42,113 nucleotides of DNA, taken from a virus. Taxonomy: Duplodnaviria > Caudoviricetes. Of this stretch, positions 622 to 37,178 are shown in pieces. A program made the position numbers and the translations under genes. A model generated the notes under the pieces. The model saw only the letters and a list, made by a program, of their open reading frames with translations, did not search any database and had not been told where the DNA came from. Position 1 is the stretch's first letter. Each line of letters starts with the position of its first letter. Location of the stretch: the IMG/VR virus record IMGVR_UViG_3300007541_000045, positions 1 to 42,113 of that record; one strand, written 5' to 3'.

Positions 622-3600
622 TTATCGAAGTAGGTTAGCTAGACCTGATGATGGTCCTCTATCCTCTCTATCCAGCATTCTAGGGACAGAGCCCTGCTTA
701 GGCTGCTGGGGTTGAGGGGTAGTGGACCTAGCAGGCATGGCGGGTAGTGGCGGCATCTGTACCTCGCTGAGACCGTGGGGAGATTCATCAGCATCAAACC
801 ACTTCATGTATGATGCATCCTCCATTGGAGGGTAGGAGAATCCCTTAGCGTTCCTGGCGGAGCCAACAGTCAGCCCGACATGGGTAGCCTTCCAGAGATC
901 ACCGACATTGACTAGGTTCTTAGCTGCCCTGACGGTCTGTCCTAGGGGCAGAGCATTCAGGGGAGATAGATCAATGGCAGTCTCTAGGAGGTTTCCTGCG
1001 GCGGTACCCATCTTAGAGGAGTCTCCCTCTCGGTAGGCAGTACCCATACTACCTACACCACGGGAGACCTGACCGTATAGCTTCTGAGCCATACCGATAG
1101 CTGGGCTACGGAATGGAGTAGCTGGGAAGCTACGCTCAGAGGCGCCATAGGCCCTCATGATTGGATTACCTACCAGATCACGAACATAGGAACCGAATGC
1201 CCCAAAGATGGGACTACCAGTACCGTACATAGCTAACATCTCTACTACATCTTCTTCAGTAGGCATACGAGTGAGCTTCTCTAGAGCCTTCTGACGATCT
1301 TCCTCTTCCTTACCAAACAGTACCCGCTGGGCATTGCGGTTGAAGTACTCCATGGCAACTAGGGACGTTAGCACACCAGCAGTCATCAGAGGACCACGAG
1401 CGGTAATACCATTGCCTACTAGAGCCTGATACGCAGCCATAGGATAACTTAGCATTTGGAATAGAAGATCAGTCCATGGGTTCATGCCTTGGAAGCGCAT
1501 GGTCCCACGAAGTTCAGGGGACAGCTCATTAGTGAAGTACATGATGAACTGGTTAAGGCTCGGAAGGATCTCTCCGTCGATCTCCGCTTGGCGGCTACCG
1601 GCGGTCTGAAGAGTACCACCCATGGCAGTTTCCATGAGGTTAGTACGCTCAGTATCAATCAGAACCCGTAGGTCATTCATGTTAATATCCCTACCTGCGG
1701 TGGTGGGAGTAAACCCACCTAGGTCCATCAGTCTCTTGATTAGAGCACCATCTCGGCGAAGTAGTCCTGACTCAGCAGCATAGACTGCTAGCTGCTTAGG
1801 AATACCCAGCTCTCTGGCAATACCGACGATACCTTCGGTGGTAATCTCACCTTCGGCACCAACTCGCTTGGCTAGGTCAATGAGAGCACCGGAGTGCTTC
1901 ATCAGGGTAGCCTTGGCTTGGTTGGAGCCAATCTCTCGAACAGCATTCGTTACAGGATGCATGAAGGACATGGTACCTGTCAAATCGGCAGTTGCCCCAG
2001 TCAGTGCCTCGATGTAGTTGACCAGCTTACGAGTGAAGCTAGGATCAAGAGCATCGGCCTGACCGGCAGCTCGAATGTTCTCAGCGTGTGCCTTCATTCG
2101 GTCCTTAAGAGTAAAGAGAAGTCGGCTCTCCTCTAGGCCCTCTCCACCTGCACCGAAGCGAGATAGAGCGGTAGAATGGAGGTTAGAGAAACTAAATACC
2201 ATATCATCAACAGACTCACGAATGATTCGAGTGTCCATACCCATGGAAGCCATGAACCGTTCTAGTGGCTTGAACTGGACAGCAAACCCCTGAGCAGCCC
2301 GTAGGTATGCTCCAAGGATCTGGCTGGTGTTGTGGACCATCTTGAATGGGTTCAGGCCAGACGTACGAAGTACGGCCATTGGGGTTTCAACGAACAATAC
2401 TGACATAGCGAACTTGGCACCAAGCATAGAGTAGGATAGGTTTTGGATAATCCGGCTTCCTTGTGAGAAACTCTTATCCTTTGCAGGGTTGAATCCTCTG
2501 GCGCGCAGATAGATCTCCTTCATGCCCTGCATCCACTCATTGACTTCATCAGTCTGCTTCTTGGTCAAAGTCCGTGGAATGCCATTATCATCACGCATTA
2601 GGTTCCTCTCAAGGGACCGTTGCATGTGATTAAACATATCTGACATACTAACACCCTTCTCTCCGGTCAGCTGGTTAATACCCTTCTGAACACGGATGGA
2701 GGCAAGTGTAGTATCTGCATACCGCATGAGTCCTTCAGCTGAGTTGGTTGCTTCAGCGAAGAGATCGGCCAATGCCTCACCGCCCTCAATGTCAAAGTCC
2801 ATGTCATTAAAGGTTCGGTTATGGAAGTTGCCGATATTCCCTAGAACACCAATACGTTCATCAATGGACTCGGTAGCGTTGGAGAAGGAAGTCTTGAATC
2901 GACCACCAGCGTGGTCAAGGTAGTGACGACCTACTCGCTCTAGAGCACTGACAGGAGCTGCTCCCTCAGCCTCAAGCATAGCCTTAAAGGCAGGACTAAG
3001 AAGACCAGTATCACCGTTCACAGCATCAGCATAAAGCTTAGCTAGTGACTTACCAGTAGAAGCAAGGCGGTGGTTCTTGTTGAACTTACCACGCTCAATC
3101 TTACTGATCTTACGACGGTTGAGGTAGTCCTCAGTTTCCTGCTCAAGCTTAGTTGGCTTACGGGGCTTCTCAGGCTCCTCGCCTGGACCCTTCTTGGTCT
3201 TAGGTGGCTTGGAGGGTGGCTCGCCTTCTCCGCCTGCTGGAGCAGTACGGCGATCGAGCTCAGCCTTGGCTTCCTTAAGACGCTCACGTTCCCAAGGAGC
3301 AAGCTTAACCTTACGACCACGAGAACGCTTGATAAGATCATCAGCAGTAGCTAGAAGCTCATCATCAGTGAGTTCAGCAACTGGCTTGGGAGGAGCAGTA
3401 CGTCGTTCGATCTCAGTATTAGCTGACTTTCTAGCAGCCTTTTCCTTCTTAGTTAGCTTCTCTCCTCTACGAGAGCGCATCTCTAAGTTATTGGTAAATG
3501 CTACTAGTTCTTCATCATTAAGGTCTTCAATAGCACGAGGAGTTGGCCCTTCCATGTCCGCAAAGATACGTTCCATGTATTCATTGTCATCTTGTACCCG

Positions 3601-6600
3601 TCCTTCAGCTTCAAGTCTAGCCAGAGCATCTTCCTCATACCTAGCTCTAAGATCTTTATCGCTAGGACGAGCGAAGTCATAAGCATCACCATCCTTCGTC
3701 CTAACAGGACCAATTCTAGTGCCAGGCTCATCTGGAATATTAGGAACACCACGCATTTCAGTTTGGGTCCTAATTTCAGTAGAAGCCGGAGCTTCAGGCT
3801 TTACCTTAGGAGTTGGCGTCTTTACATCGACGGGCTCTACAATTGGTTTTCCTGTAAAAGCACTATACAGATTAGAGGGCTCTCCGATAAAATTAATTTC
3901 ACCATTTAGCCTAAAATCAGAAGTGCTATCAGAAAAGATAACAGCATCATATCCTTGTTCCTTTAGCTCTGCCAAAGAAAGCTTTGGCTTTGCGTGTCTA
4001 GGTCCGGCCCAATATGGTTTCCTAATGTCAGCAAAAACAGCAACCATTTGAGGTGCATAAGCAGTTTTGTCTGATAGAGGAGCTTGAGTAGCATAACTAG
4101 ATGCTTTTGAGGAATCTGAAGTAAAGAATAGGCCATTTCTTCCAAGATGCGGATTCGGGTCACTAAATTCAAATGTTTCTTGAATACCAGAGCTAGTGCT
4201 TCCACGGAAAAGAGGAACAGTAATAACACTATCAGAGAGTTCTTCTGTTAAGCCTAGTCTATCAACTAAGGCTGGATTACCTCTTAACCCTTCATAATTT
4301 AATGGCATTCCGCCATTTCTAGATCTTGGATTAATAGCCCATTCATATAACCAGTCAACAACGCTTGTGGCATCAAAGTACATTTCATCCGGATCATATT
4401 CCCAGGCATCAATACCCTTGTTATTAAAATGCCTAGATTCCTTTATTGCTAAGATTTCACCAGCGTCTAGTTCTTCTCCGTTTAAGCCCCTTAAATAAGT
4501 TTCCCATAGCAACTTATTTTTACCAGCATCATCTAAAGCTTCCCATTCATTTGGAAGTTTAGGAGTTGGCGCCTCAGGAACCTCATCAATAATCTGCTGT
4601 AGATCATCAGATGCCTGACGCATAGGACCAACCATTTCTGGGGTACCTAATGCCTCAGGTTCAGCAGCCTTCTGTGCCTTACGCTTGTAGAAGTACTCAG
4701 CTGCCTCACGAGAGAAGGTAACACCTTCACCCGGATTAGGCTGATCCCATTCAGAGTTACGGCTCATGAAGGCTAGGACGCTATCACTGCTATCAATGAT
4801 CTCATCTAGCTCTTCCTGTGAGAGACGAGTATACCCCGGCACACCGAGGAACTCTGTGTCTGGTGCATTCTGATAAGGAGTAATAGGTTCACCAGTAAGA
4901 TCACCCTTGTTCCCTACAGATGTCTCAGCCACAGCCTGCTGAACAGCATCACTGTCAGCAATCTCGTTATCAGCAATACGACGCTGAATCTTAGGACGAG
5001 CCTTCTCTACTGCGGTATCAATGGCCTGAACAGCTACCTGCTCCTTTTCGCCCTTGAACTCTCTAATTACTTGTTCAGCTGCTTTTTTATTCTCTTGATT
5101 AAGAGGACCACGCTTAGAGTTATGGGCCTTGACATTTGTTCGAGAAATGCCAGTCTCTTCTACTACAGCATCAATGATATCATCAGTAAGAGGATAGACT
5201 CCTGAATCGTTAGGAACTAAGCCACGCTTGACGAAAGCGTCTTCAAGAAGCTTAGCATCATCAATAGCCTTAAGAGCCTTCTTGACTGTCTTATCCTTGG
5301 ACAGGCGTGCTTCAGTAAGCTTACGCGACAGTAGCTCAGCCTGCTCAAGTGCTATGGCTTCTTCTTCAGGAGTAGCAGTCTTAGCTGCTGGAGCCTGTTC
5401 GATAAAGGACTTGCCCTCTGCATCTTCTCCAGAGACACCTCGCTTGGCGCGATCAAACACTTCTCTGTTAGCACGCTTAGCAGCCTTGGCCTCATTTAGT
5501 GCCTTGGTAATTAGAAGATCAACAATCTGATCATCATCCATACCATCAAAGGTAGACTTGATTCCACGGCCTGGAGTGGTACGGATTAACTGCCCCTCTT
5601 CTTCAGAGAGTTGTTGAAGAATTCCAGCAACCGCATCAATCTGATACGGCTTAAGGGCTCGCTCTTCGCTAAGGCCCTCAACACGAGCAAATACCTTGGT
5701 ACTGATTTCTTCAGCACGAGACATTGCAGTTTCCTGAGCCTTAGGCTTAGCAGTCATGGAAGTCATGTGCTCTGTTAATTCAGTAACAGACTCATCAAAC
5801 TGCTTCTGAGCACGCTGCTTATCCATAGCCGTAGCACGAGGATTAGCCTCAGTCTTCTTAAGCTTTTCTTCAGCCTTGTCAGCCTTACGCTTTAGGAAGG
5901 CAAGTCTTTCATCGGGAGCTAGCTGACCAGCTCTACCTAACTCATCTAGATCAACCAGCTTATAAGCATCGATCTCCTCAGCAACATCCACGCCAAAGAG
6001 ACGCATGATACGATCCGAGGCTGCCTCGTCTGGCTGTGAATCATAGATAGCACGAATGATCTGCTTAAGACCAGACCAGTTTTCCTTACCCATGATCTGC
6101 TCACCCATACCGGCTGCTTCATCACCTAGAAGAGCCACATCGCCAAAGAGCTTCTTGTAGAACTTTCCAAACTTACTTAGGAAGGTTCCCAAAGTACCTC
6201 GGCGAGCAGTTACTACTTGGTTACGAAGCATGGTAGCTTCAGCAAGTGCAGCAGTAAACTCATGGACATTACTCATGGCATATTCAGCATCTACACCAAT
6301 CTGCTCAAATAGCCGTCGAATAGAATTCTGACCATTCTTTGCTTGGTTATAGAGAGACTGAATTACACCCTGCATTCGAGGAGAAGATGACAAGAAGGCA
6401 ATGTGAGAGGTCTCATGGACCAGAGTTAATGCCGCATTGACAGCACGATCATTACCTTCGCCTGCTAATTCTTCCAGCTTACGGAGACGGATAATACCAT
6501 CTTCCTCAGCAATGCCTAAGAATCGTTTTGCTAAGTTATCAGAGATATCAATACGAGTAAAGCTCATGCCACCCATCTTGTGAGGATCAATATCCACAAA

Positions 6601-9600
6601 GGCTAGGCGAACAAGCTTTGCTGCGGTTTCATCTAGGAACCCTTCAGCTACGAGTGCATCGAGACGATGACTAAGTGCTGCGTGTCCTTCTGATAGGCCA
6701 TCAAAGGCATCGCGATCATTGACATACTTGATCTTCTGGTTTGCATTCATTGGCTTACGGCGAACACGAGGTGCCGTATCCGATAGGTTTACTTCGGCAG
6801 CCCGAGCAAGAGCTCGCTGTCGCATAACCAGAGCATCGTCAATATCATCCTTTAGAGCTTGAACACTAAGGCCAGTAGCCGCCTCAATCTCTTCTGCTAC
6901 GTCATCAGAGACACGAGCAAGAGTAGAGCGAGCATTCTCTAGACGCTTGATAGTTTCATCAAGACCGAGAACGCCACGAGCTACGGCAGACTCAGCACCA
7001 GCTGACTCTGCGGATCGGCCTAGTGGTAGGCTCATGCTGTTACCAAAGATCTCACCAACCTCATCAGCTACCCTCATAACATCAGCCATGTTTGCTGGAT
7101 CATCAATAAGATCCATAGCATAGTTAATGTCTGAACTGACAGCAGCTGCACGACCAGCAGCTGGAGTTGCTGCTTCGGGGTCTAGTTCCTCAAGCCCGGC
7201 AAAGCCACGCTTGACAATCATTTCTGCAAACTCACGATTGACATCAATGTCATCAGAGATATGCAGAGGTGAGTCCTGTGGTACATCAAACTTCTTGTTT
7301 ACCAAGCGACGGCCAAGAGCATCATGCTCACTACCCTTAGTGATGCGAATCCAGCCAATAGACTCTAGAACTTCTAGGTCTAGGGCAGCTCCACCACGGA
7401 GTAGCTGATGTCGTCGAATCTTAGTAAAGTTATCAATGAACTTACTAGCCCGCTCTGCGGATAGACCACCACGGATATGATGAGGAATATAGCGGGTTGC
7501 ACTAATGCCAGTTAGCGGAGACCCAGCTTCTGCTGCTTCCTCGATTGCCATAGCCATGACATTGGTGTATGCTCGCTGAGCGGCATAGAGATCTGCACGA
7601 AGAGCTTCTTCTCCGCCTAGGTTTTCATAAGCACGTAGCAGTGCCTCTGGAACCCCAGCTAGATCGAACTCACCGGGCTTACCGACTAGCCTGCCTAGCT
7701 GACGTTGACGAAGGAAGAAAGTATCAAAGAGAGAGTAAGGCTGTTCGCCTAGCTTTCGTCGAAGACTCTTCGAGAGATTTAGGAAGGGAACTGCTTCTCT
7801 AGCAGCACCTTCAACAATAGACTCAATTGACATGAAGTCAGTAGAGTTACTAAAGATACGGTTACTTACATGCTGCCCAGTAATCCAGTTCGACATACCA
7901 CGAACAATCCTGTTTCGGTGGCGGAATAACCTGTTCTGGGCAATAGGCCATAGAGAAACCGATGCCATAAGCCTTTCCATGCGAGCACCAATAGTGGTCT
8001 CACGGAACATGCTATTAAACCAAGCTCGTGACCGTGAGCCCTCACCAACACTGACAGCATCGGGTGAGCTACGGAGAATAAGCTTATCAATAGCGGCTCC
8101 TAGGATTTCATCTTGCTCAAGTCCTGTACGCGCTGAGAATGGAATATCACTCTTGATACGCTCAAGAACACGAGCATAGGCTTCTTCGGCATCAAAGTCA
8201 ATACCGAGCTTCTTGTTGACTTCCATGAACCTCTTCTGCATACGAGTAGCAACCTTTTCAAGACGGCGTAGAGCCTTCTCGTCTCCGCGCTTCTCAGCCA
8301 GCTTTGCAGCTCGCTTAGCAAGAGAACGAAGCTTTGTACGAAGATCCTTAGCTTCTCGAATAGCTGCAACAGCATTAGAGGTTTGTAGGAAGTTCTCAAC
8401 ATTAAAGGCTGGTGGTGTACTATCAAGCACACGCATACCCTCGCCCTTTGAGATAGCTTGAATAGCAGCACGAGCATCAGGCATCTCTGCATCGAGGGCC
8501 TTGATTGCGGTAGCATCGCCAACAATAGCCTTATACCTACTAGCATACTGCATCAGTCGCTTAGCACTAATACCTAGATCCTGAGCCGCCTTGATAGTTG
8601 ACTCATTACGGAGAAGGTTAAGAGCATTCTCTACACGAAGAACTTGCTTCAAGAACGAGTCTTCGGTACGAGCCTTTGTTCCAGTCGCCACAATAGAGTC
8701 AATCTTACGGTTAAAGATAGCTAGCTCTTCGGCAGGTAGGTTGCCCTTTTCGTTGACAAGACGCTGGACTGACTTCATTAGCTTCTCGTCGTGAAGACTC
8801 TGAGCATAGTCAGTAAGCTTCTTAAGATTCTTAGGAGTAATAGTACCGTCCTTAAGGGCCTGCACAAGAGTCTTTAGCTCTGTATGCTGGGCGTCAGTTA
8901 GAGGACGAAGACCACTACCGCCTACAAACCTAGCTTCTACTTCCTTCATGTTAGCCGTAACAGCAGCATCAATCTGCTGGATACGAGCATCAGCAACATC
9001 ACGAAGAAGCTTTCCGCTATCATCATAAAGATCTGCGCCAAACTTAGCAGCATGTTCTTTAGATGCACGGAAAGCAGCACGGACAACTTGATCAAACTCT
9101 TCTGCTGCAATCTGACCGCCAGCTCCTAGTCGTCGCTGAATACCGTAGACAAGATCTACAGCAGCAGCTGGCGATAGGCCATTCTCGGCTAGTACATGAG
9201 AAGAGAATAGAGAATCAACTAGAGTCGAGTGGCTTGCTCCTTCAGGTACAACTACCATGTTAGGAATAACCTCGGCAATAGCTTCCTTAGCCTCGACCTC
9301 ACCTCGGTTAAGGCGAATAGCAAGACCTCGGTTTTCGATATTAGAGAAGATCTGAGCACCCTCTACCTCAGCGACAGTAGCTTCACGCTCTGCGAGGCGA
9401 CTCAGTGCTCGGCTCATTGAAGCCTCACCAACGATACCCGTAGCTGCAATATCCTCAGCTAGGTTAGTAACATGAGTGCTTAAGCGGCCTAGACCACGAA
9501 TGCTTGGGCCAACACCACCAACAAGACCTGCCAAACCGGCACCTCCAATAGCACCCAGACCTCCGTAGAGTAGCATGTTATTAGTAACACCATTCCAGTC

Positions 9601-11106
9601 TAGCTCCTCCTGAAGGCCGCCAACGATAGCCTGAGACTGTCCAGCGATGCCTACAGCGTAGCCTTCTGTCAAACCGGCAGTCAGACCGTCTAGAGCTGTC
9701 ATGGACATAACACGACCAAGAGAGGTAGTTGTAGTAGCAGCTCCAGCACTAAACACAGCACCAGTTGCCATACTGGCTCCTACACCGCCAACAACGGACG
9801 GAATAAGGAAATACATAGCAAATGGGTCATTTCCTACATCTACTTTAATAGTATCACTAAAGCGACGAGTCCAGTTAGCCCAGCCATCATGCCAGCCTTT
9901 TTCAAAGATCATTTCACGAGAGTTAGTAGCTGCTAGCTCAGAGACAACTCGCATTGCCTCGGCAGAGTACTTATACTCGTTCTGCATATAAGGGAGAACC
10001 TCGCCGTCCTTATCCCGAAGGAAGGTATCTTGTCGGTAGCCAGCAAACTCTAGGCTCTTACGGGTATCTTCAGGGAGCCGATCCCAGGCAGTATCTGCCC
10101 AGTTGCCACGCTGCTGAACAGAGCCCATGGCTTCATCGAGGAAGTCTGGACCAACAGTTACAGCAAGAGCCTTAACCTGCTCTAGGACTGCCAGAGGATT
10201 GAGATCCTTTGGGTTATTAATGAGAGCATGAAGGTTACGGATTGTTTCCTGCTGAGCTTGTTCATACACATAGACCTTAAGAGCATCCTGATTGAGACCA
10301 CGGTCTTCACCACGGGCTCGGATTTCATCAAAACTATCAAGATTGAACTGCTTAAGGTCGTCTTGGTTGATAGTCCCAGTCTGACGAGCTAGATCAATAG
10401 CTGCATCCATAAGCTCTTCATCCTGAATAATTTCCTCAGTCTTCATTCCTCTGAAGCTACCCGGAGCAATATCATTGATTGCTGCTACGAGTGCTGGCTT
10501 CCAGTCCGAGCGATTAGGGTTACGCTCTGCGTTGAAGAAGTTAGGATCTCGGCGGCCAGCTAGAAGACGGGCAGTACGTAGAATATTACCACGACCTTCG
10601 TAGAAGTTCTTATCTTCACCAGCCTTGCCAGCTTCATTGACAGTAGTACCGGGGCCTACGCCAAGCGGTCCCCAGCTGTATAGATCCTTTTGCTCCCGCT
10701 TGGCATTCTCTTCGCTATAGATTTCAGAGAACTGAGCCTCTACTAGATCAGAGGGAAGGTCGGGAAATAGACTTGTAAACCATGTCGATGCCTGCCGTTG
10801 TCTGGCAAGAAGCATTTGCTTATTACCAATACCAGCTACATTAACACCGAGCATACCATTTAGTCCGGCATCATTTGAAGCCTTTGCGGAAACCATCTGC
10901 TCGGAAAGAGCTGGAGTACTAAATGCCTCAGGATCCTTCGCCTGAAGCAAGGCAAGATCAAAGCTAGTACCAATAAGAGTACCGCCTCGGCCATCAGAAA
11001 TAACCTGAGGTTGTTCGGTACCACGAATACCACTGCGATAAGGAGAGAACATAGATTCTAAATTCTCTTGTTCCTCCCGAGTAACACGATTAGAATAAAT
11101 AGCCAT
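622..11106 (-). CDS. Giant internal virion (ejection) protein, gp16-like, multidomain, 3494 aa
   Basis: Follows the gp14/gp15-like genes; SD AAAGGA. Degenerate SLT-like N-terminus (SWGPLGVGPGT...NILRTARLL...ALVAAINDIAPG), Gly/Ala hydrophobic segments, gp16-like YIPHH and LLFQMLSYP motifs, HETSH zincin motif and an ART-like segment. Confidence 0.8.
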   Translation of the reverse strand: MAIYSNRVTREEQENLESMFSPYRSGIRGTEQPQVISDGRGGTLIGTSFDLALLQAKDPEAFSTPALSEQMVSAKASNDAGLNGMLGVNVAGIGNKQMLLARQRQASTWFTSLFPDLPSDLVEAQFSEIYSEENAKREQKDLYSWGPLGVGPGTTVNEAGKAGEDKNFYEGRGNILRTARLLAGRRDPNFFNAERNPNRSDWKPALVAAINDIAPGSFRGMKTEEIIQDEELMDAAIDLARQTGTINQDDLKQFNLDSFDEIRARGEDRGLNQDALKVYVYEQAQQETIRNLHALINNPKDLNPLAVLEQVKALAVTVGPDFLDEAMGSVQQRGNWADTAWDRLPEDTRKSLEFAGYRQDTFLRDKDGEVLPYMQNEYKYSAEAMRVVSELAATNSREMIFEKGWHDGWANWTRRFSDTIKVDVGNDPFAMYFLIPSVVGGVGASMATGAVFSAGAATTTTSLGRVMSMTALDGLTAGLTEGYAVGIAGQSQAIVGGLQEELDWNGVTNNMLLYGGLGAIGGAGLAGLVGGVGPSIRGLGRLSTHVTNLAEDIAATGIVGEASMSRALSRLAEREATVAEVEGAQIFSNIENRGLAIRLNRGEVEAKEAIAEVIPNMVVVPEGASHSTLVDSLFSSHVLAENGLSPAAAVDLVYGIQRRLGAGGQIAAEEFDQVVRAAFRASKEHAAKFGADLYDDSGKLLRDVADARIQQIDAAVTANMKEVEARFVGGSGLRPLTDAQHTELKTLVQALKDGTITPKNLKKLTDYAQSLHDEKLMKSVQRLVNEKGNLPAEELAIFNRKIDSIVATGTKARTEDSFLKQVLRVENALNLLRNESTIKAAQDLGISAKRLMQYASRYKAIVGDATAIKALDAEMPDARAAIQAISKGEGMRVLDSTPPAFNVENFLQTSNAVAAIREAKDLRTKLRSLAKRAAKLAEKRGDEKALRRLEKVATRMQKRFMEVNKKLGIDFDAEEAYARVLERIKSDIPFSARTGLEQDEILGAAIDKLILRSSPDAVSVGEGSRSRAWFNSMFRETTIGARMERLMASVSLWPIAQNRLFRHRNRIVRGMSNWITGQHVSNRIFSNSTDFMSIESIVEGAAREAVPFLNLSKSLRRKLGEQPYSLFDTFFLRQRQLGRLVGKPGEFDLAGVPEALLRAYENLGGEEALRADLYAAQRAYTNVMAMAIEEAAEAGSPLTGISATRYIPHHIRGGLSAERASKFIDNFTKIRRHQLLRGGAALDLEVLESIGWIRITKGSEHDALGRRLVNKKFDVPQDSPLHISDDIDVNREFAEMIVKRGFAGLEELDPEAATPAAGRAAAVSSDINYAMDLIDDPANMADVMRVADEVGEIFGNSMSLPLGRSAESAGAESAVARGVLGLDETIKRLENARSTLARVSDDVAEEIEAATGLSVQALKDDIDDALVMRQRALARAAEVNLSDTAPRVRRKPMNANQKIKYVNDRDAFDGLSEGHAALSHRLDALVAEGFLDETAAKLVRLAFVDIDPHKMGGMSFTRIDISDNLAKRFLGIAEEDGIIRLRKLEELAGEGNDRAVNAALTLVHETSHIAFLSSSPRMQGVIQSLYNQAKNGQNSIRRLFEQIGVDAEYAMSNVHEFTAALAEATMLRNQVVTARRGTLGTFLSKFGKFYKKLFGDVALLGDEAAGMGEQIMGKENWSGLKQIIRAIYDSQPDEAASDRIMRLFGVDVAEEIDAYKLVDLDELGRAGQLAPDERLAFLKRKADKAEEKLKKTEANPRATAMDKQRAQKQFDESVTELTEHMTSMTAKPKAQETAMSRAEEISTKVFARVEGLSEERALKPYQIDAVAGILQQLSEEEGQLIRTTPGRGIKSTFDGMDDDQIVDLLITKALNEAKAAKRANREVFDRAKRGVSGEDAEGKSFIEQAPAAKTATPEEEAIALEQAELLSRKLTEARLSKDKTVKKALKAIDDAKLLEDAFVKRGLVPNDSGVYPLTDDIIDAVVEETGISRTNVKAHNSKRGPLNQENKKAAEQVIREFKGEKEQVAVQAIDTAVEKARPKIQRRIADNEIADSDAVQQAVAETSVGNKGDLTGEPITPYQNAPDTEFLGVPGYTRLSQEELDEIIDSSDSVLAFMSRNSEWDQPNPGEGVTFSREAAEYFYKRKAQKAAEPEALGTPEMVGPMRQASDDLQQIIDEVPEAPTPKLPNEWEALDDAGKNKLLWETYLRGLNGEELDAGEILAIKESRHFNNKGIDAWEYDPDEMYFDATSVVDWLYEWAINPRSRNGGMPLNYEGLRGNPALVDRLGLTEELSDSVITVPLFRGSTSSGIQETFEFSDPNPHLGRNGLFFTSDSSKASSYATQAPLSDKTAYAPQMVAVFADIRKPYWAGPRHAKPKLSLAELKEQGYDAVIFSDSTSDFRLNGEINFIGEPSNLYSAFTGKPIVEPVDVKTPTPKVKPEAPASTEIRTQTEMRGVPNIPDEPGTRIGPVRTKDGDAYDFARPSDKDLRARYEEDALARLEAEGRVQDDNEYMERIFADMEGPTPRAIEDLNDEELVAFTNNLEMRSRRGEKLTKKEKAARKSANTEIERRTAPPKPVAELTDDELLATADDLIKRSRGRKVKLAPWERERLKEAKAELDRRTAPAGGEGEPPSKPPKTKKGPGEEPEKPRKPTKLEQETEDYLNRRKISKIERGKFNKNHRLASTGKSLAKLYADAVNGDTGLLSPAFKAMLEAEGAAPVSALERVGRHYLDHAGGRFKTSFSNATESIDERIGVLGNIGNFHNRTFNDMDFDIEGGEALADLFAEATNSAEGLMRYADTTLASIRVQKGINQLTGEKGVSMSDMFNHMQRSLERNLMRDDNGIPRTLTKKQTDEVNEWMQGMKEIYLRARGFNPAKDKSFSQGSRIIQNLSYSMLGAKFAMSVLFVETPMAVLRTSGLNPFKMVHNTSQILGAYLRAAQGFAVQFKPLERFMASMGMDTRIIRESVDDMVFSFSNLHSTALSRFGAGGEGLEESRLLFTLKDRMKAHAENIRAAGQADALDPSFTRKLVNYIEALTGATADLTGTMSFMHPVTNAVREIGSNQAKATLMKHSGALIDLAKRVGAEGEITTEGIVGIARELGIPKQLAVYAAESGLLRRDGALIKRLMDLGGFTPTTAGRDINMNDLRVLIDTERTNLMETAMGGTLQTAGSRQAEIDGEILPSLNQFIMYFTNELSPELRGTMRFQGMNPWTDLLFQMLSYPMAAYQALVGNGITARGPLMTAGVLTSLVAMEYFNRNAQRVLFGKEEEDRQKALEKLTRMPTEEDVVEMLAMYGTGSPIFGAFGSYVRDLVGNPIMRAYGASERSFPATPFRSPAIGMAQKLYGQVSRGVGSMGTAYREGDSSKMGTAAGNLLETAIDLSPLNALPLGQTVRAAKNLVNVGDLWKATHVGLTVGSARNAKGFSYPPMEDASYMKWFDADESPHGLSEVQMPPLPAMPARSTTPQPQQPKQGSVPRMLDREDRGPSSGLANLLR

Positions 11107-14961: not shown

Positions 14962-15446
14962 TATACAATCTCCTTAATATGAGATAGAATTTGATCAGGA
15001 TATTCTCGGAGGTCTTCCATACGAACCCTGAGCAATTGTGTATTAGAAAAATTAGACTTGATTCCTTCCTTCTGGGCTTGGAACATTCCAGAGATTACTT
15101 CACCAGTAGGTGGAGCAAAGCCTTCAGCAATAGCACAATTATAAATAGATGCTACCTGAGCCTCAAAGTCATCCCTAGTCATAAGAACTACCAGCTTTAC
15201 TTTGCTGGCATCCACACGACTAAACTGTGGGCTCCACAGCTTGATAACTTTATTCTCTTCATAGGGGATTTTCTCGGAGGAGAAAAGAGCCTCTTTCTTC
15301 ATGTCCCAGAATCCATCAGGATTTTTTTCCCGAGCAACATACTCAGGAAAGGCTTCTGCCAACGAATGCGCTTCAAAGCTTTGCAGTAATAGACGCATCA
15401 TGGCAGACGTACCGCATCGAGGTGCAGTTCCAGTAACGACAATCAT
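14961..15446 (-). CDS. P-loop sulfotransferase family protein, 161 aa
   Basis: N-terminal IVVTGTAPRCGTSAMMRLL (5'-PSB loop, GxPRSGTS type), NPDGFWD, and VVLMTRD...VASI (3'-PB-like). ATGA overlap with TerL and TAATG overlap with the gp14-like gene. Confidence 0.7.
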   Translation of the reverse strand: MIVVTGTAPRCGTSAMMRLLLQSFEAHSLAEAFPEYVAREKNPDGFWDMKKEALFSSEKIPYEENKVIKLWSPQFSRVDASKVKLVVLMTRDDFEAQVASIYNCAIAEGFAPPTGEVISGMFQAQKEGIKSNFSNTQLLRVRMEDLREYPDQILSHIKEIV

Positions 15447-17158
15447 CTGCCCCTCCTTAGGAAGTTTGGACGCTGGTTTGGACCACTGCCTCCATAAACA
15501 GTACGTACACGAGATGTGCCACTGTTGCCTCGGCCCTCGGTAATGAGCTGGCCTCGACGCTTATTATCAGTCCACATCTTAAGATATTCTTCTTCTGCCT
15601 TACGCATATTCTTTTCTGCTTCTGCATCTACATCAACCTGTAGCCACTCTCTCCAGTAATCACAAGCTGCTGAGAGAACGTCCACCCGGTCGTCGTGCTT
15701 AAGTGCACCCTTCATATCCGTAAGACGAGTAATCTGAACCTGAGTCTTCTCTTCGCGAATAGCCTTGGTATCAAACACCAGTCGGTGCCCGGCCATAACA
15801 GGCTCGATGTTAGAGATCATTCGCCTTTCTTTTTGTCCAGATACTCTGAAATCTTCGATAGCAATTCGTCCACAAATACGAAAAGCAATTGGACGGAGCA
15901 ATGCAGCAACTGTACCATCGCCAAAATTAGATTCCACGCGGATCGTCGAAGCATTGTACTGTAAAGCTTTCTTCGCAATCTTTTCCAAGGTTGTGTCATC
16001 ATAGCCTCCATCAAGACCAAAGAGTTCATGTACAACAATATAGCCATTGACACAGGAAGCTACGCACACAGCTGTCTCATCGCTACCTCGTCCCGACGGG
16101 TCTACAAAGACCACAGTTTGGGTATAGGGAATAAACGATGGTGAGATATACATAGGCTTATACAGCTTATCTCCAGACATCCCAAAGCTAGGTACATGCT
16201 TGTACGGCTCGGCATTAGCCCAGACAACCTTCTCGGGAAACATCTCTGGGTCTACATCAAAGACCAACAGATCTGCCAGCCGAAGAGGATACTTTCCTAC
16301 GTCAGCCAGCGAGCAGTCAAGGCGATAGTGCAGATCAAACTTAGTTGGTCCGATCTTTGCCTTACGCTCTTCCAGCAGCTCTTGGCTAAATCGCTCGGGC
16401 TGGGTAGATGTACCAGGCTCCTTATCGAGCATCATGATCCAATCAGCTACATTCTCACATTGAGACTTGATAGTAGGATCAGGAACTACAGCTGGGAACT
16501 TGATCTGAGGATAGCTCATTGCGAGCTTGTTGTAGATCGAGTCTCTAGTCTGAGGAGTACCGAGCATGATTACTCGGCCTCCTGGGTTACGAATCTGCTC
16601 TAGTTCGTGAAGACGGTTGAGCAGCTTCTCACGCTGTACTTCGGTATCAGAGTTACCCTCAATCTCAATATCATCAGAGATGACAATATCAGCGTGGCTA
16701 CCAGTAATCTGGCTAGTGATACCACGAGCAAAGACTGAGGAGTCCTGACCTACCTTCTGACGGAATCCACAGTTGAATGCAAAGGCATTATCAATCATGT
16801 TTTCCTTTGGTGCTAAGTGGTTACAGTACGGCACTAGGTCCAGAATGCGTCGAGTCATCGAGATGAACTCCACGGCCTTCTGAGCGGTAGCCGACAGAAC
16901 CATGATTGTGCAGTCAGGATCCCTAAGAAGGAACCACGATGCAAGAATAGAAGTTAGTACAGACTTACCGGCACCACGGCCAGCCTGCAACTGCATGTCA
17001 GTACCGTATGACTGTAACGCATCTGCCATGGCATACTGGAGATCTGTCGGTGCTACACCGAATAGATACTTCATGCATGCATAGAGATGGTTTCTAAAGT
17101 CCGATACCATCTCATCCGGCACGCTGGCCGGAATACGATCAGGATTAATCGGGTTCAT
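15443..17158 (-). CDS. terL: Terminase large subunit (T7 gp19-like)
   Basis: Walker A QAGRGAGKS, ITGSHADIVISDDIE, LGTPQT, nuclease VDPSGRGSDET and HDDRVDVL. Confidence 0.97.
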   Translation of the reverse strand: MNPINPDRIPASVPDEMVSDFRNHLYACMKYLFGVAPTDLQYAMADALQSYGTDMQLQAGRGAGKSVLTSILASWFLLRDPDCTIMVLSATAQKAVEFISMTRRILDLVPYCNHLAPKENMIDNAFAFNCGFRQKVGQDSSVFARGITSQITGSHADIVISDDIEIEGNSDTEVQREKLLNRLHELEQIRNPGGRVIMLGTPQTRDSIYNKLAMSYPQIKFPAVVPDPTIKSQCENVADWIMMLDKEPGTSTQPERFSQELLEERKAKIGPTKFDLHYRLDCSLADVGKYPLRLADLLVFDVDPEMFPEKVVWANAEPYKHVPSFGMSGDKLYKPMYISPSFIPYTQTVVFVDPSGRGSDETAVCVASCVNGYIVVHELFGLDGGYDDTTLEKIAKKALQYNASTIRVESNFGDGTVAALLRPIAFRICGRIAIEDFRVSGQKERRMISNIEPVMAGHRLVFDTKAIREEKTQVQITRLTDMKGALKHDDRVDVLSAACDYWREWLQVDVDAEAEKNMRKAEEEYLKMWTDNKRRGQLITEGRGNSGTSRVRTVYGGSGPNQRPNFLRRGR

Positions 17159-17416: not shown

Positions 17417-17677
17417 TTATGCCCTCCTTGGACGCTTACCGTGACCATTACGAGCACGGTTCTTAGTGCGATCCTCTAGGAAAGTTTTACCATTCTTCTT
17501 GTGGGAGACATCCTTGCCTCCCTTGCCCATAATCCCACGCCTGCGGCGTTCAGCAGCTAACCTACGGCGACGTTCCCTTTCCTCCGGTCGGTTATTAATT
17601 TTAGCCTGCTGAGCAACACGCTTCTTTCTAGCTTTTGGATTAGAGGCGTAGTACTTAGAAGTTTTAGATTGACCCAT
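17417..17677 (-). CDS. Small Arg/Lys-rich protein with a minimal HNH-like motif
   Basis: KDVSHKKNG...EDRTKNRARNG resembles reduced HNH proteins found near phage terminases; SD GAGGTG. Confidence 0.6.
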   Translation of the reverse strand: MGQSKTSKYYASNPKARKKRVAQQAKINNRPEERERRRRLAAERRRRGIMGKGGKDVSHKKNGKTFLEDRTKNRARNGHGKRPRRA

Positions 17678-17685
17678 AAGTCACC

Positions 17686-17979
17686 TCACCATTTCACACG
17701 ATTGGCCCAGTATGCCGCAGACATCTTACCCTTGGCGATGTTCTTGGCATGTCGGGCCTTAAAGGAGGCACGCTTCTTCTTCATCTTATCTGATTCACCT
17801 GACTTAGGCTTGCCAGCAGTCTTAGCTCCTTGCTCACCAAAGCGAATGGTTTTAATCTGATCGCCTTGCTTAGCAACAACAATATGAGACTTCTTAGGAT
17901 GATTAGGAGTACGTTTTGGTTTGTTGTATCCAGATACACCAGCACGAGCTAGTCTAGGATCTTTCTTCTTACCAGCCAT
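17686..17979 (-). CDS. Conserved small basic phage protein, 97 aa
   Basis: KSHIVVAK...IRFGEQG...RASFKARH...SAAYWANRVKW pattern seen in aquatic phage proteins; TAATG coupling to the upstream ORF. Confidence 0.75.
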   Translation of the reverse strand: MAGKKKDPRLARAGVSGYNKPKRTPNHPKKSHIVVAKQGDQIKTIRFGEQGAKTAGKPKSGESDKMKKKRASFKARHAKNIAKGKMSAAYWANRVKW

Positions 17980-18107
17980 TACTTACCCTTTTTCGTTGTT
18001 TTTGCCTTATAGAATGTCACTTTATTACCAGACTTAGCCGCTTCCTTCTTGGCAGCAGCCATGCCCTTCTTGGTGTAGGAATAATGCTTCTTTCCGACTT
18101 GTGGCAT
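17979..18107 (-). CDS. Small basic protein, 42 aa (not in ORF track)
   Basis: MPQVGKKHYSYTKKGMAAAKKEAAKSGNKVTFYKAKTTKKGK; strong SD AGGAGG; stop overlaps the next ATG. Confidence 0.75.
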   Translation of the reverse strand: MPQVGKKHYSYTKKGMAAAKKEAAKSGNKVTFYKAKTTKKGK

Positions 18108-18110
18108 AGG

Positions 18111-18212
18111 TTAACCTCCTTGACGTTTAGCAGCCTTTGCTAGTTTAACATCCTTAGGACGTACTCTAGGAAGCTGCTTAGGATTAACGGGTTTCTTGCT
18201 TTGTTTTCTCAA
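18111..18212 (-). CDS. Possible 33-aa basic peptide (TTG start)
   Basis: (M)RKQSKKPVNPKQLPRVRPKDVKLAKAAKRQGG fills the gap with phage-like codons; AAGGA upstream. Confidence 0.4.
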   Translation of the reverse strand: MRKQSKKPVNPKQLPRVRPKDVKLAKAAKRQGG

Positions 18213-18405
18213 GGGCTGAAATCCTTAAATCATGTGAATGAAGTGTGTTATTGATATCATGAATTCTATCACGGTTCTTATCCGTTTCAGAAATCACATT
18301 ATCTAACTTTGCTTCGATTTGAGGTATTTTCCATACACGAGTAATGATGGTAGCAATACCACCAGCCAAGAGAACAAGAGCAAATTTAATAAATTCATCA
18401 TTCAT
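18184..18405 (-). CDS. Small membrane-anchored coiled-coil protein (lysis region)
   Basis: One N-terminal TM segment (FALVLLAGGIATII) followed by a heptad coiled coil; ATGA overlap with the holin. Confidence 0.65.
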   Translation of the reverse strand: MNDEFIKFALVLLAGGIATIITRVWKIPQIEAKLDNVISETDKNRDRIHDINNTLHSHDLRISALEKTKQETR

Positions 18406-18685
18406 GATCGTGCCCTCGCGATCGAAGAGCCACCAAGGTAAAAACCAGCGGCGGCCAGAAGAGCAGCACGAAGCTCAGGAAGAATAACAATTCCCCTGAG
18501 TTGTTCCCAGCCTCCGGTAAAGAGGCCGAGGAAGTCCCATGGGGCTCGCTCGGATTCGACCCAGACATCGACCCCGTAGAGGGCTCCGATGAAGGGGGCA
18601 ACTGCAAGTACCCAGAGGACGGTAAAGACGAGCACCCGCCGACCAACGTGACTACCACGCAGGTTAGCACGATCAGCGGAATCAT
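18398..18685 (-). CDS. Overprinted lipoprotein with C-terminal TM (u-spanin-like), about 95 aa
   Basis: +1 frame of the holin: MIPLIVLTCVVVTLVGG|CSSLP lipobox, Ser/Pro-rich linker, C-terminal LLFFLSFVLLFWPPLVFTLVAL. Holin third-codon positions switch to C/G across the linker. Confidence 0.5.
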   Translation of the reverse strand: MIPLIVLTCVVVTLVGGCSSLPSSGYLQLPPSSEPSTGSMSGSNPSEPHGTSSASLPEAGNNSGELLFFLSFVLLFWPPLVFTLVALRSRGHDHE

Positions 18686-18812
18686 CAGCCACAGCTTGCT
18701 TCTGCAAGAGTAGCTCAGTTGTCTTTTGTTGGTTTTCCAATGAGGCAGCCATAAAGCGAAAGACAAACCCCATTAGGCCACCGCCTAACATTGACAGAAG
18801 CTCTAGAGTCAT
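18402..18812 (-). CDS. Putative holin (3-TM type), 136 aa
   Basis: Three hydrophobic segments, C-terminal GFYLGGSS motif, SD GGGAG, upstream of the terminase genes as in T7. Confidence 0.65.
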   Translation of the reverse strand: MTLELLSMLGGGLMGFVFRFMAASLENQQKTTELLLQKQAVADDSADRANLRGSHVGRRVLVFTVLWVLAVAPFIGALYGVDVWVESERAPWDFLGLFTGGWEQLRGIVILPELRAALLAAAGFYLGGSSIARARS

Positions 18813-36361: not shown

Positions 36362-37178
36362 CTTGCTGGAGTACCAAGTTTCGACTATATCATCCTGAGT
36401 AGCGGTACTCAGGGAACGCACTTTCGTTATAGATCATTAACTTCTTTGAGTAATCAAAACGACCTTCGTATTGAAGATCAAACTTATATCTCATAGAAGG
36501 TGGAATATAATCCATAACGGGAAGAACCGTATCAAGTAACTGCCTCATTCCTGTGGAGTTAAATGATATCATGGGATATCCTCTTTGCTGAATCTGGCGT
36601 ATGCCGGTGATTCCAAAGTTCTTGGTAAAGGAATCCATCATCTTATCAACTTCCTTTATAGTAAACGAGCATACCGCTAGGCGTCCTTGTCTACTACCGC
36701 TGGAGCTGTTGACTCGAAAGCTGCCATCATCACACCAAAGCCACGCAAGTCCAAGAGGTGTCAGCCGATCAAGCATATACATGCTCGGATACTTGACTCC
36801 AGTGGACTTCCATGCTCTATTAAAGTTCCAATGACGAGCTGTGATGTGTGTCCTCATAAAGACCTGACCACTTCCCAACGTATTGATGTTGGATACGCGG
36901 CGATCAGACTCAATGAGACATGCACGAATGGATTCTAGATATTCACGCTGTTGAGGAGCGTGCTTAATACTCATTTGGTTACGTCGAGTTTTATCAACAT
37001 AACCATCACCAAGAAAGATACCAAATAGACTGTAGTCTATCTCTTTATTACTAAACATTGTTTTACTTCCTGTAGTCTGTGGAGTTTCCGGTGCAATACC
37101 GGATTACCTGCTGATTTTCTATCGCAATGATAGTTTTCCCAGCAATTCACGTTCTTTAAATTGGCCTCCTATTATCGA
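36362..37178 (-). mobile_element. Group I intron (IA-like), 817 nt, in the major capsid gene
   Basis: 5' splice site after U in a U.G pair (UGGCU/GGCCA, P1); terminal omega-G; IGS AUAGGA pairs with 3' exon UCCUAU (P10); P AAUUGCUGGGAAA, Q AAUCAGCAGG, R ACAGACUA, S GAUAUAGUC; P3 GAACG/CGUUC; P8 CCUGAGUA/UACUCAGG. Confidence 0.93.
36390..37058 (-). CDS. Intron-encoded LAGLIDADG homing endonuclease (two-motif, LAGLIDADG_2-like), 222 aa
   Basis: LFGIFLGDGYV and LTPLGLAWLWCDDGS motifs; IPPSMRYKF tail; lies between P7 and P3'. Confidence 0.88.
   Translation of the reverse strand: MFSNKEIDYSLFGIFLGDGYVDKTRRNQMSIKHAPQQREYLESIRACLIESDRRVSNINTLGSGQVFMRTHITARHWNFNRAWKSTGVKYPSMYMLDRLTPLGLAWLWCDDGSFRVNSSSGSRQGRLAVCSFTIKEVDKMMDSFTKNFGITGIRQIQQRGYPMISFNSTGMRQLLDTVLPVMDYIPPSMRYKFDLQYEGRFDYSKKLMIYNESAFPEYRYSG

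Follow-up and report, generated by a model that had tools for sequence, protein, structure and literature searches.

Gene organization at the locus

The window analysed here is a virus record of 42,113 bases (63% complete) from an uncultured, T7-like aquatic phage, whose minus strand carries T7-type portal, scaffold, capsid, tail tube, nozzle and terminase genes. The large terminase subunit of T7 type was identified by a family match at 15443-17158 (minus strand), and this fixes the slot of the gene of interest as that of the T7 holin 17.5. The gene of interest (18402-18812, minus strand), called the host gene here, follows several fibre-like genes and precedes the packaging genes, and the equivalent slot in T7 is filled by holin 17.5 and the spanins 18.5/18.7. 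Elsewhere in the window, a LAGLIDADG homing endonuclease gene (36390-37058, minus strand) is found between the scaffold and major capsid genes, and a 3494-aa ORF (622-11106, minus strand), which gave no Pfam or PHROG match, occupies the slot of the T7 internal virion proteins; its counterparts in two related genomes, G001 and G002, are 4029 and 4668 aa long.

The host gene encodes a 136-aa membrane protein. In its AlphaFold model, which was built on a 114-sequence alignment (mean pLDDT of 85), three helices (residues 2-52, 55-78 and 112-135) and a beta hairpin (83-105) are predicted. The sole family match was PHROG 38283, a family whose function is not known, and neither Pfam nor any named PHROG was matched. 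Remote similarity to GTA_holin_3TM (PF11351) was suggested by Atlas, which ties the protein at 0.94 to a cluster with this domain on 14% of its members, and by weak matches of the PF11351 model to 2 of 114 host-family members (best E of 0.003). The window protein itself stays below the family cut-off; when the whole window record was searched with PF11351, no match was obtained anywhere, and the controls gave none either. A fold search with the host-gene model matched unnamed viral proteins only. Because Pfam and the named PHROGs are silent, we infer the holin assignment from the remote GTA_holin_3TM similarity and the T7 slot. As a small protein with several TM segments in the lysis slot (136 aa, three helices, position of T7 17.5), the product has features in keeping with a holin, and the host gene is likely to encode one. 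Distant homologs were found in the Verrucomicrobia phage P8625, in an Opitutae MAG and in the Roseobacter phages CRP-4 and CRP-7, the hosts of which all bear an outer membrane. No endolysin gene adjoins the host gene in any locus examined.

The next gene (18184-18405, minus strand) overlaps the host gene by ATGA and encodes a 73-aa protein with an N-terminal TM segment and a coiled-coil-like tail, for which Pfam, PHROGs and NCBIfam gave no family match. It was considered as an i-spanin and rejected, as its charge pattern suggests an N-out/C-in orientation; it is possibly a second lysis membrane protein. Between these membrane genes and the terminase gene lie three tiny Lys/Arg-rich genes (17417-18107, minus strand; PHROGs 33179, 7595 and 6437), the number of which varies among relatives. 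Directly 5' of the host gene, several relatives (L186:3793-4413, L002, L003, L016 and L053) carry a gene for a ClpP-like protein of about 205 aa with a signal-peptide-like N-terminus, which is absent from the window, and in some distant phages the same position is taken by a tubulin/FtsZ-like gene (L217:836-1996 and, by resemblance, L207:741-1982).

A second open frame and its predicted product

The +1 frame of the host gene is open for 122 codons in its longest form, starting with TTG 18766 and ending with the stop at 18398 (18398-18766, minus strand), as an earlier sequence-only reading had reported, and it runs 4 nt past the end of the 136-codon host ORF (18402-18812). The product is a predicted lipoprotein with a C-terminal TM segment, and the arrangement of parts that this reading had described from ATG 18685 (signal, VGG/CSS, Ser/Pro/Gly linker, TM and short tail) was confirmed. 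A hydrophobic signal region (18635-18694) leads to the lipobox VGG-C with Ser at +2 (18629-18643; Cys codon 18632-18634), the Gly-Cys-Ser part of which overlaps host codons 59-61. It is followed by a Ser/Pro/Gly-rich linker of about 48-49 aa that is predicted to be disordered (18488-18631), and by a TM segment with a central Pro-Pro (18431-18487; sequence and model) and a short tail with basic residues. In the structure model, a TM helix is formed by residues 63-92, no strands are present, and the linker has a pLDDT of about 45-55.

These features are shared by the +1 proteins of relatives to different degrees. G-C-S after a hydrophobic stretch occurs in 35 of 35, and the strict lipobox consensus is fitted by 9 of them. 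The linker is 40-54 aa long, except for 28 aa in L098, and 29 of 30 complete +1 proteins pass the 17-residue TM rule, L053 being the one that fails. An extra Cys is present in the linker of 7 of the 15 proteins examined, in several cases at the TM edge; the window's protein has none. In L098 (L098:827-1175), an in-frame deletion of 69 nt (23 codons) removes the host hairpin region and halves the +1 linker, although this is a single record and could be an assembly error.

Among all six frames of the window, the +1 gene is the only lipobox-plus-TM ORF. The absence of a visible Rz/Rz1 pair, also noted earlier, was upheld, with no match among 29 window ORFs scanned (one overlapping ORF of 189 codons was outside the scan). 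Single-sequence and profile searches, Pfam, PHROGs and NCBIfam returned no relatives of the +1 protein, and the best Atlas score was 0.77; since this is expected for a nested gene that is not called, it is evidence in neither direction. In RNA runs, the locus accounted for small shares only, and one 152-nt contig spans the lipobox; such contigs cannot reveal frame or transcription.

The overlap is maintained by selection

We collected 161 loci, which gave 160 host-gene copies (122 unique), and defined as the near set 34 unique copies with at least 70% identity (29 complete and 5 partial) from loci of 37-57% G+C. In all 34, the +1 frame has no stop after host codon 13, and the frame is also open in L053, which is only 51% identical. 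In contrast, each of the other 87 copies (38-50% identity) has 1-11 +1 stops after codon 42, and +1 stops were also found in P8625, the Opitutae copy, 79 more distant unique loci and four annotated phage copies. For 13 representatives with less than 90% nucleotide identity, codons 43-134 contain no stops against 59.6 expected, while the same null fits the controls (22 vs 18.3 expected in codons 2-13; 194 vs 185.6 in 36 far representatives); since the sequences share ancestry, these numbers cannot be treated as independent. In the +2 frame, every near homolog contains 1-10 stops.

Codon use tells the same story. First, host codons 59-61 are RGG, GTG and CTC in 35 of 35 copies, which fixes Gly-Cys-Ser, against background frequencies of 0.23, 0.20 and 0.12. 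Second, the choice of third bases in the host gene switches by region. At four-fold sites of the window, 69% of host codons over the linker end in C (background 17%), and 64-68% of those over the signal and TM end in T (background 37%). For the clade, the preference goes from 59% T (signal) to 56% C (linker) and back to 56% T (TM), compared with 45% T, 19% C and 33% T at the matching sites of the 87 far homologs. The C/G-ending linker and T-ending flanks that had been pointed out earlier are thus real, but the codons listed in support were a selected subset of the stretch. Third, synonymous difference is reduced to 0.27-0.32 over the signal and lipobox and to 0.38 over the TM, compared with 0.55-0.59 in far homologs; outside the overlap, synonymous sites differ by about 0.5, the same as in the far group. 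When host codons were resampled synonymously 5000 times, an open frame with a lipobox arose in a fraction of 0.0006, and no +1 run of 122 codons was seen in 85 equal-sized windows of other window genes.

It could be argued that host codon use alone has produced an open +1 frame with a hydrophobic translation, as such shadow frames arise readily from hydrophobic host helices and from T-ending codons (the latter a caution of the earlier reading), as 6 of the 85 control windows have a +1 run of at least 95 codons, and as the +1 protein has no database relatives. Against this stand the absence of stops where 59.6 were expected, the switch between T- and C-ending codons that is lacking in far homologs, the invariance of the rare lipobox codons, and the retention of the frame across loci of 37-57% G+C, by which the shadow-frame explanation is effectively refuted. 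The case for selection rests here on stop counts and codon data; the hydropathy P values exaggerate significance, because each stop received a strongly polar score. The overlap represents a real gene that selection maintains at the cost of the codon freedom of the host gene. The conservation checks proposed with the sequence-only reading were thereby carried out, and close homologs showed neither +1 stops (34/34 open) nor loss of the Cys (present in 35/35), together with suppressed synonymous variation.

In a midpoint-rooted tree of 63 rows, a single clade (support 99/93) takes in all 14 open rows together with one protein that lacks a DNA sequence, L053 being its deepest branch. Because the frame is maintained in this one clade and closed in all other sampled branches, a single birth of the +1 gene, overprinted on an older one, is most likely. 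No usable loci came from searches for intermediate relatives, and a DNA-pattern scan found known contigs only.

Start of the nested gene

The sequence-only reading placed the start at ATG 18685 (18683-18685, minus strand), and this was not borne out. Among the 34 near copies, the site is ATG in 12 and ACG in 22, and near-identical strains in runs of three studies carry ATG-to-ACG changes with TTG 18766 intact (in one run, 7 letters separate the site from a contig end). The Shine-Dalgarno energy is -0.9 kcal/mol at this ATG, in keeping with the caveat of a weak SD that had been raised, and 0 to -3.4 kcal/mol at codon 43 in all 34 copies. A different picture was obtained upstream, where 28 of the 34 copies have an in-frame TTG or ATG with an energy of -5.8 kcal/mol or better, located at codon 13 in 23, at codon 16 in 2 (window included), at codon 32 in 2 and at codon 34 in 1. 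In this phage, TTG 18766 (18764-18766, minus strand; -6.6 kcal/mol) appears the likelier start. The Shine-Dalgarno-like run (18777-18785, minus strand) comes from host Gly codons 10-12 and lies upstream of this TTG, and of the codon-13 TTG in 23 relatives. An SD-led canonical start was found in 10 of 14 representatives (1.9 expected). Because the ATG is not conserved and has a weak Shine-Dalgarno, and because SD-led TTG/ATG codons lie upstream in 28/34, the +1 gene likely starts upstream of ATG 18685 with a long basic leader, at TTG 18766 here. The n-region lacks a basic residue when read from ATG 18685, as had been cautioned, but the likelier upstream start would supply a basic one.

Some observations speak against an upstream start. 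Six of the 34 copies have no SD-led canonical start, the Shine-Dalgarno run comes from conserved Gly codons, synonymous constraint begins only near codon 43, and the resulting leader would be long (44-47 aa). In addition, the codon next to ACG is ATT in 22 of 22 ACG copies, compared with 0 of 17 far copies that have GAC first. Given the six copies, the late constraint and the ACG-ATT pairing, near-cognate initiation or a frameshift is possible. A ribosomal frameshift at host codons 14-42 would fuse the first holin helix to the lipobox-linker-TM module, and it would agree with the absence of stops from codon 14 onwards in each of the 14 representatives (6.6 expected) and with the lack of any single conserved start codon. 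There is, however, no invariant slippery site, synonymous difference over codons 14-42 (0.48-0.52) equals that of controls, and the SD-led canonical starts explain the open stretch without a shift, which makes frameshifting very improbable. A Tat leader, a conserved slippery site and +2-frame translational coupling at codon 43 were also considered and dropped, as none was conserved.

Lipoprotein partners in the wider host family

To place the nested gene in its family, a distant branch of the host family (E of at most 8e-16 to the near profile) was sampled with 17 loci and the best 80 of 386 matches, giving 79 unique loci. In 63 of these 79, the very next gene encodes a stand-alone lipoprotein, and in 60 of 79 it has a C-terminal TM; the linkers are 25-33 aa long in 40 and 115-156 aa in 20. 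Such lipoproteins occur in 10 of 11 clusters at 75% identity, one of which supplies 39. No spanin annotation was found for the 8 stand-alone partners scanned, and the genes that follow PHROG 38283 homologs in L191-L287 (for example, L251:2144-2380 and L192:2432-2944) gave no informative family match. These partners, with linkers down to 25-33 aa, are candidate minimal u-spanins in uncultured phages. They have the same topology as the nested protein, with Pro inside the TM and often shorter linkers (25-33 aa), but are separate genes. No clear homology between nested and stand-alone lipoproteins was detected (best E of 0.008 among 63, compatible with a shared composition of signal and TM). In the branches nearest to the overprinted clade, 0 of 73 next genes encode lipoproteins, and P8625 has no credible candidate; as these branches have neither a nested nor a stand-alone lipoprotein, the host family can do without one. 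The nested gene thus seems to have re-invented, independently, a partner with which the family is often, but not always, equipped.

The complete relative G001 has no spanin family match in 62 ORFs, and the +1 gene is the only credible lipobox-plus-TM ORF in the window, in G001 and in G002. The endolysin candidate of G001 lies about 40 kb from the host gene and is a destabilase-type (i-type) lysozyme (PF05497, E of 1e-8, above the cut-off; L181:5239-5754) with a hydrophobic N-terminus, an unusual candidate for this function; PF05497 is present in 1 of 5 related genomes. Directly 5' of the lysozyme gene, L181:5060-5215 encodes a short entericidin-like lipoprotein (weak NCBIfam matches, E of 1.5e-4). 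G001 also has two RNA-polymerase-like genes, and its exported protein with a weak dockerin match (L181:9579-10169) and its citrate-synthase-like ORF (L181:11218-11724) are possible clues to the host.

Proposed role as a one-piece spanin

A lipoprotein signal at the N-terminus and a TM segment at the C-terminus of one chain define u-spanins in the survey by Kongari et al. (2018, PMC6139136), and T1 gp11, one of them, rescues lambda Rz-Rz1- (PMC6139136). The +1 product has this defining topology as predicted and departs from two descriptive traits, and we therefore call it u-spanin-like. We estimate a probability of roughly 0.6 that it works as a minimal one-piece spanin. The topology of lipobox, polar linker and C-terminal TM is kept in the clade, and the distant branch repeatedly pairs the host gene with a lipobox-plus-TM next gene. 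On the other side, the linker of 40-54 aa is shorter than the periplasmic domain of all 55 u-spanins tabulated in that survey (60-149 aa), although this length is descriptive and outside the paper's definition, and none of the 58 catalogued there has an extra linker Cys (PMC6139136), whereas 7 of 15 linkers have one here. Further points against are that only 9 of 35 lipoboxes are strict, that the nearest branches without the overlap have no lipoprotein partner, and that the stand-alone partners carry no spanin annotation.

In the mechanism that we propose, the +1 gene would be translated from the upstream TTG or ATG (TTG 18766 here) with its long basic leader. Lgt and LspA of the bacterium would then lipidate the protein and cleave it at the Cys; Ser at +2 would let the lipid end reach the outer membrane, and the C-terminal TM would remain in the inner membrane. 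After holin triggering and wall breakdown, the tether would draw both membranes together, leading to fusion, and nesting within a single 411-nt locus would hold the ratio of holin to spanin constant. With about 0.35 nm per extended residue, the linker would by our own estimate reach some 15-19 nm, which is marginal for the periplasm.

Compared with known systems, the nested protein shares the single chain and the late-region position with the u-spanins T1 gp11 and SIO1 gp22 (Kongari et al. 2018, PMC6139136). The nearest in character among those described in the consulted parts of the survey is SIO1 gp22, which is 60 aa long, Gly/Ser-rich and nearly unstructured (3% helix, 10% strand) with an LGG-C lipobox; T1 gp11 is rich in beta structure, and the SIO1 and PB1 families are not (PMC6139136). 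The nested protein differs from u-spanins in being encoded out of frame inside a membrane gene, in its short linker, in the absence of predicted beta structure and in its long or non-standard leader. With lambda Rz/Rz1 and T7 18.5/18.7 it has in common an out-of-frame nested lipoprotein gene that is missed by gene callers and a Pro/Ser-rich unstructured product. However, its host gene encodes a three-helix holin-like protein with a beta hairpin, in place of the i-spanin with its single N-terminal TM and its coiled coil in the periplasm, and, unlike Rz1, the nested protein has its own conserved C-terminal TM. GTA_holin_3TM proteins, including ICP1 TeaA, also have three helices and a similar size, their putative relation to the host protein being remote. 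TeaA has holin activity, and no nested gene is described for PF11351 holins in the sections of that source relied on here (PMC7182436).

Two other functions of a real +1 gene have to be weighed. As the main rival, the product could be a holin regulator (antiholin or assembly partner), that is, a lipoprotein retained in the inner membrane whose TM packs on the helices of the holin and which modulates the timing of lysis or its inhibition. Antiholins are often encoded in or overlapping the holin gene, and the PF11351 holin TeaA has a membrane antiholin (PMC7182436). In addition, conservation is higher in the TM than in the linker, which is short, L098 lost 23 linker codons in frame, and adjacent stand-alone partners would fit holin binding equally well. 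In-gene antiholins (lambda S107, A118 Hol118(83) and the in-frame antiholin of a Lactobacillus phage) are likewise second products of a holin gene, but in the parts of the literature consulted they are in-frame forms of the holin, whereas the nested protein is an out-of-frame lipoprotein of unrelated sequence. The invariant lipobox with Ser at +2 and the C-terminal TM make up the defining u-spanin topology, and the complete genome G001 has no other spanin candidate, so that we consider a regulator unlikely. Alternatively, the +1 gene may be unrelated to outer-membrane fusion and serve, for example, in masking a receptor or in superinfection exclusion, and the host gene could be something other than a holin. 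That PHROG 38283 has no named function and that no endolysin was annotated or detected next to the homologs in CRP-4, CRP-7, C75C1 and P8625 would agree with such a role; the link to the PF11351-bearing Atlas cluster (0.94), the three-helix model, the T7 holin slot and the repeated pairing of the host family with lipobox-plus-TM proteins argue against it, and we regard it as improbable, more so than a regulator.

Of the holin/u-spanin overprint first suggested for this locus, the overprinting is strongly supported and the topology and family context are favourable, while the holin part is itself deduced. The fuller account, which we would put at about even odds, is that a one-piece spanin arose de novo by overprinting in a holin gene, so that one 411-nt locus would provide both the hole and the fusogen, that the fusogen would be a structureless tether of about 45 residues, and that it would re-invent the topology of the neighbours' stand-alone partner.

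Novelty and significance

The working model of u-spanin membrane fusion needs collapse of a beta sheet. With a low-complexity overprinted tether, one can test directly if two anchors joined by a tether are enough, and among family partners natural linker lengths range from 25 to over 150 residues. A possible lipoprotein antiholin is reportedly nested in Bcep22-like holins, which could lower the novelty. In the JC1 paper, Bcep22-like cassettes are described as typical S-R-Rz-Rz1 (PMC9144972). Our full-text literature search, confined largely to papers outside subscription, uncovered no case of a u-spanin, or of a lipoprotein bearing a TM, that lies out of frame inside a holin gene. Spanin architectures in the consulted portions of the survey are embedded, overlapped, separated or unimolecular, with nesting described there only for an o-spanin inside an i-spanin, and 91 of 677 phages appeared to be spanin-less (PMC6139136). 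If true, a holin gene with a u-spanin inside it would represent a new architecture that gene callers cannot see, and would be one explanation for apparently spanin-less phages. The overlap is also a clear example of gene birth, for which outgroups without the frame are available.
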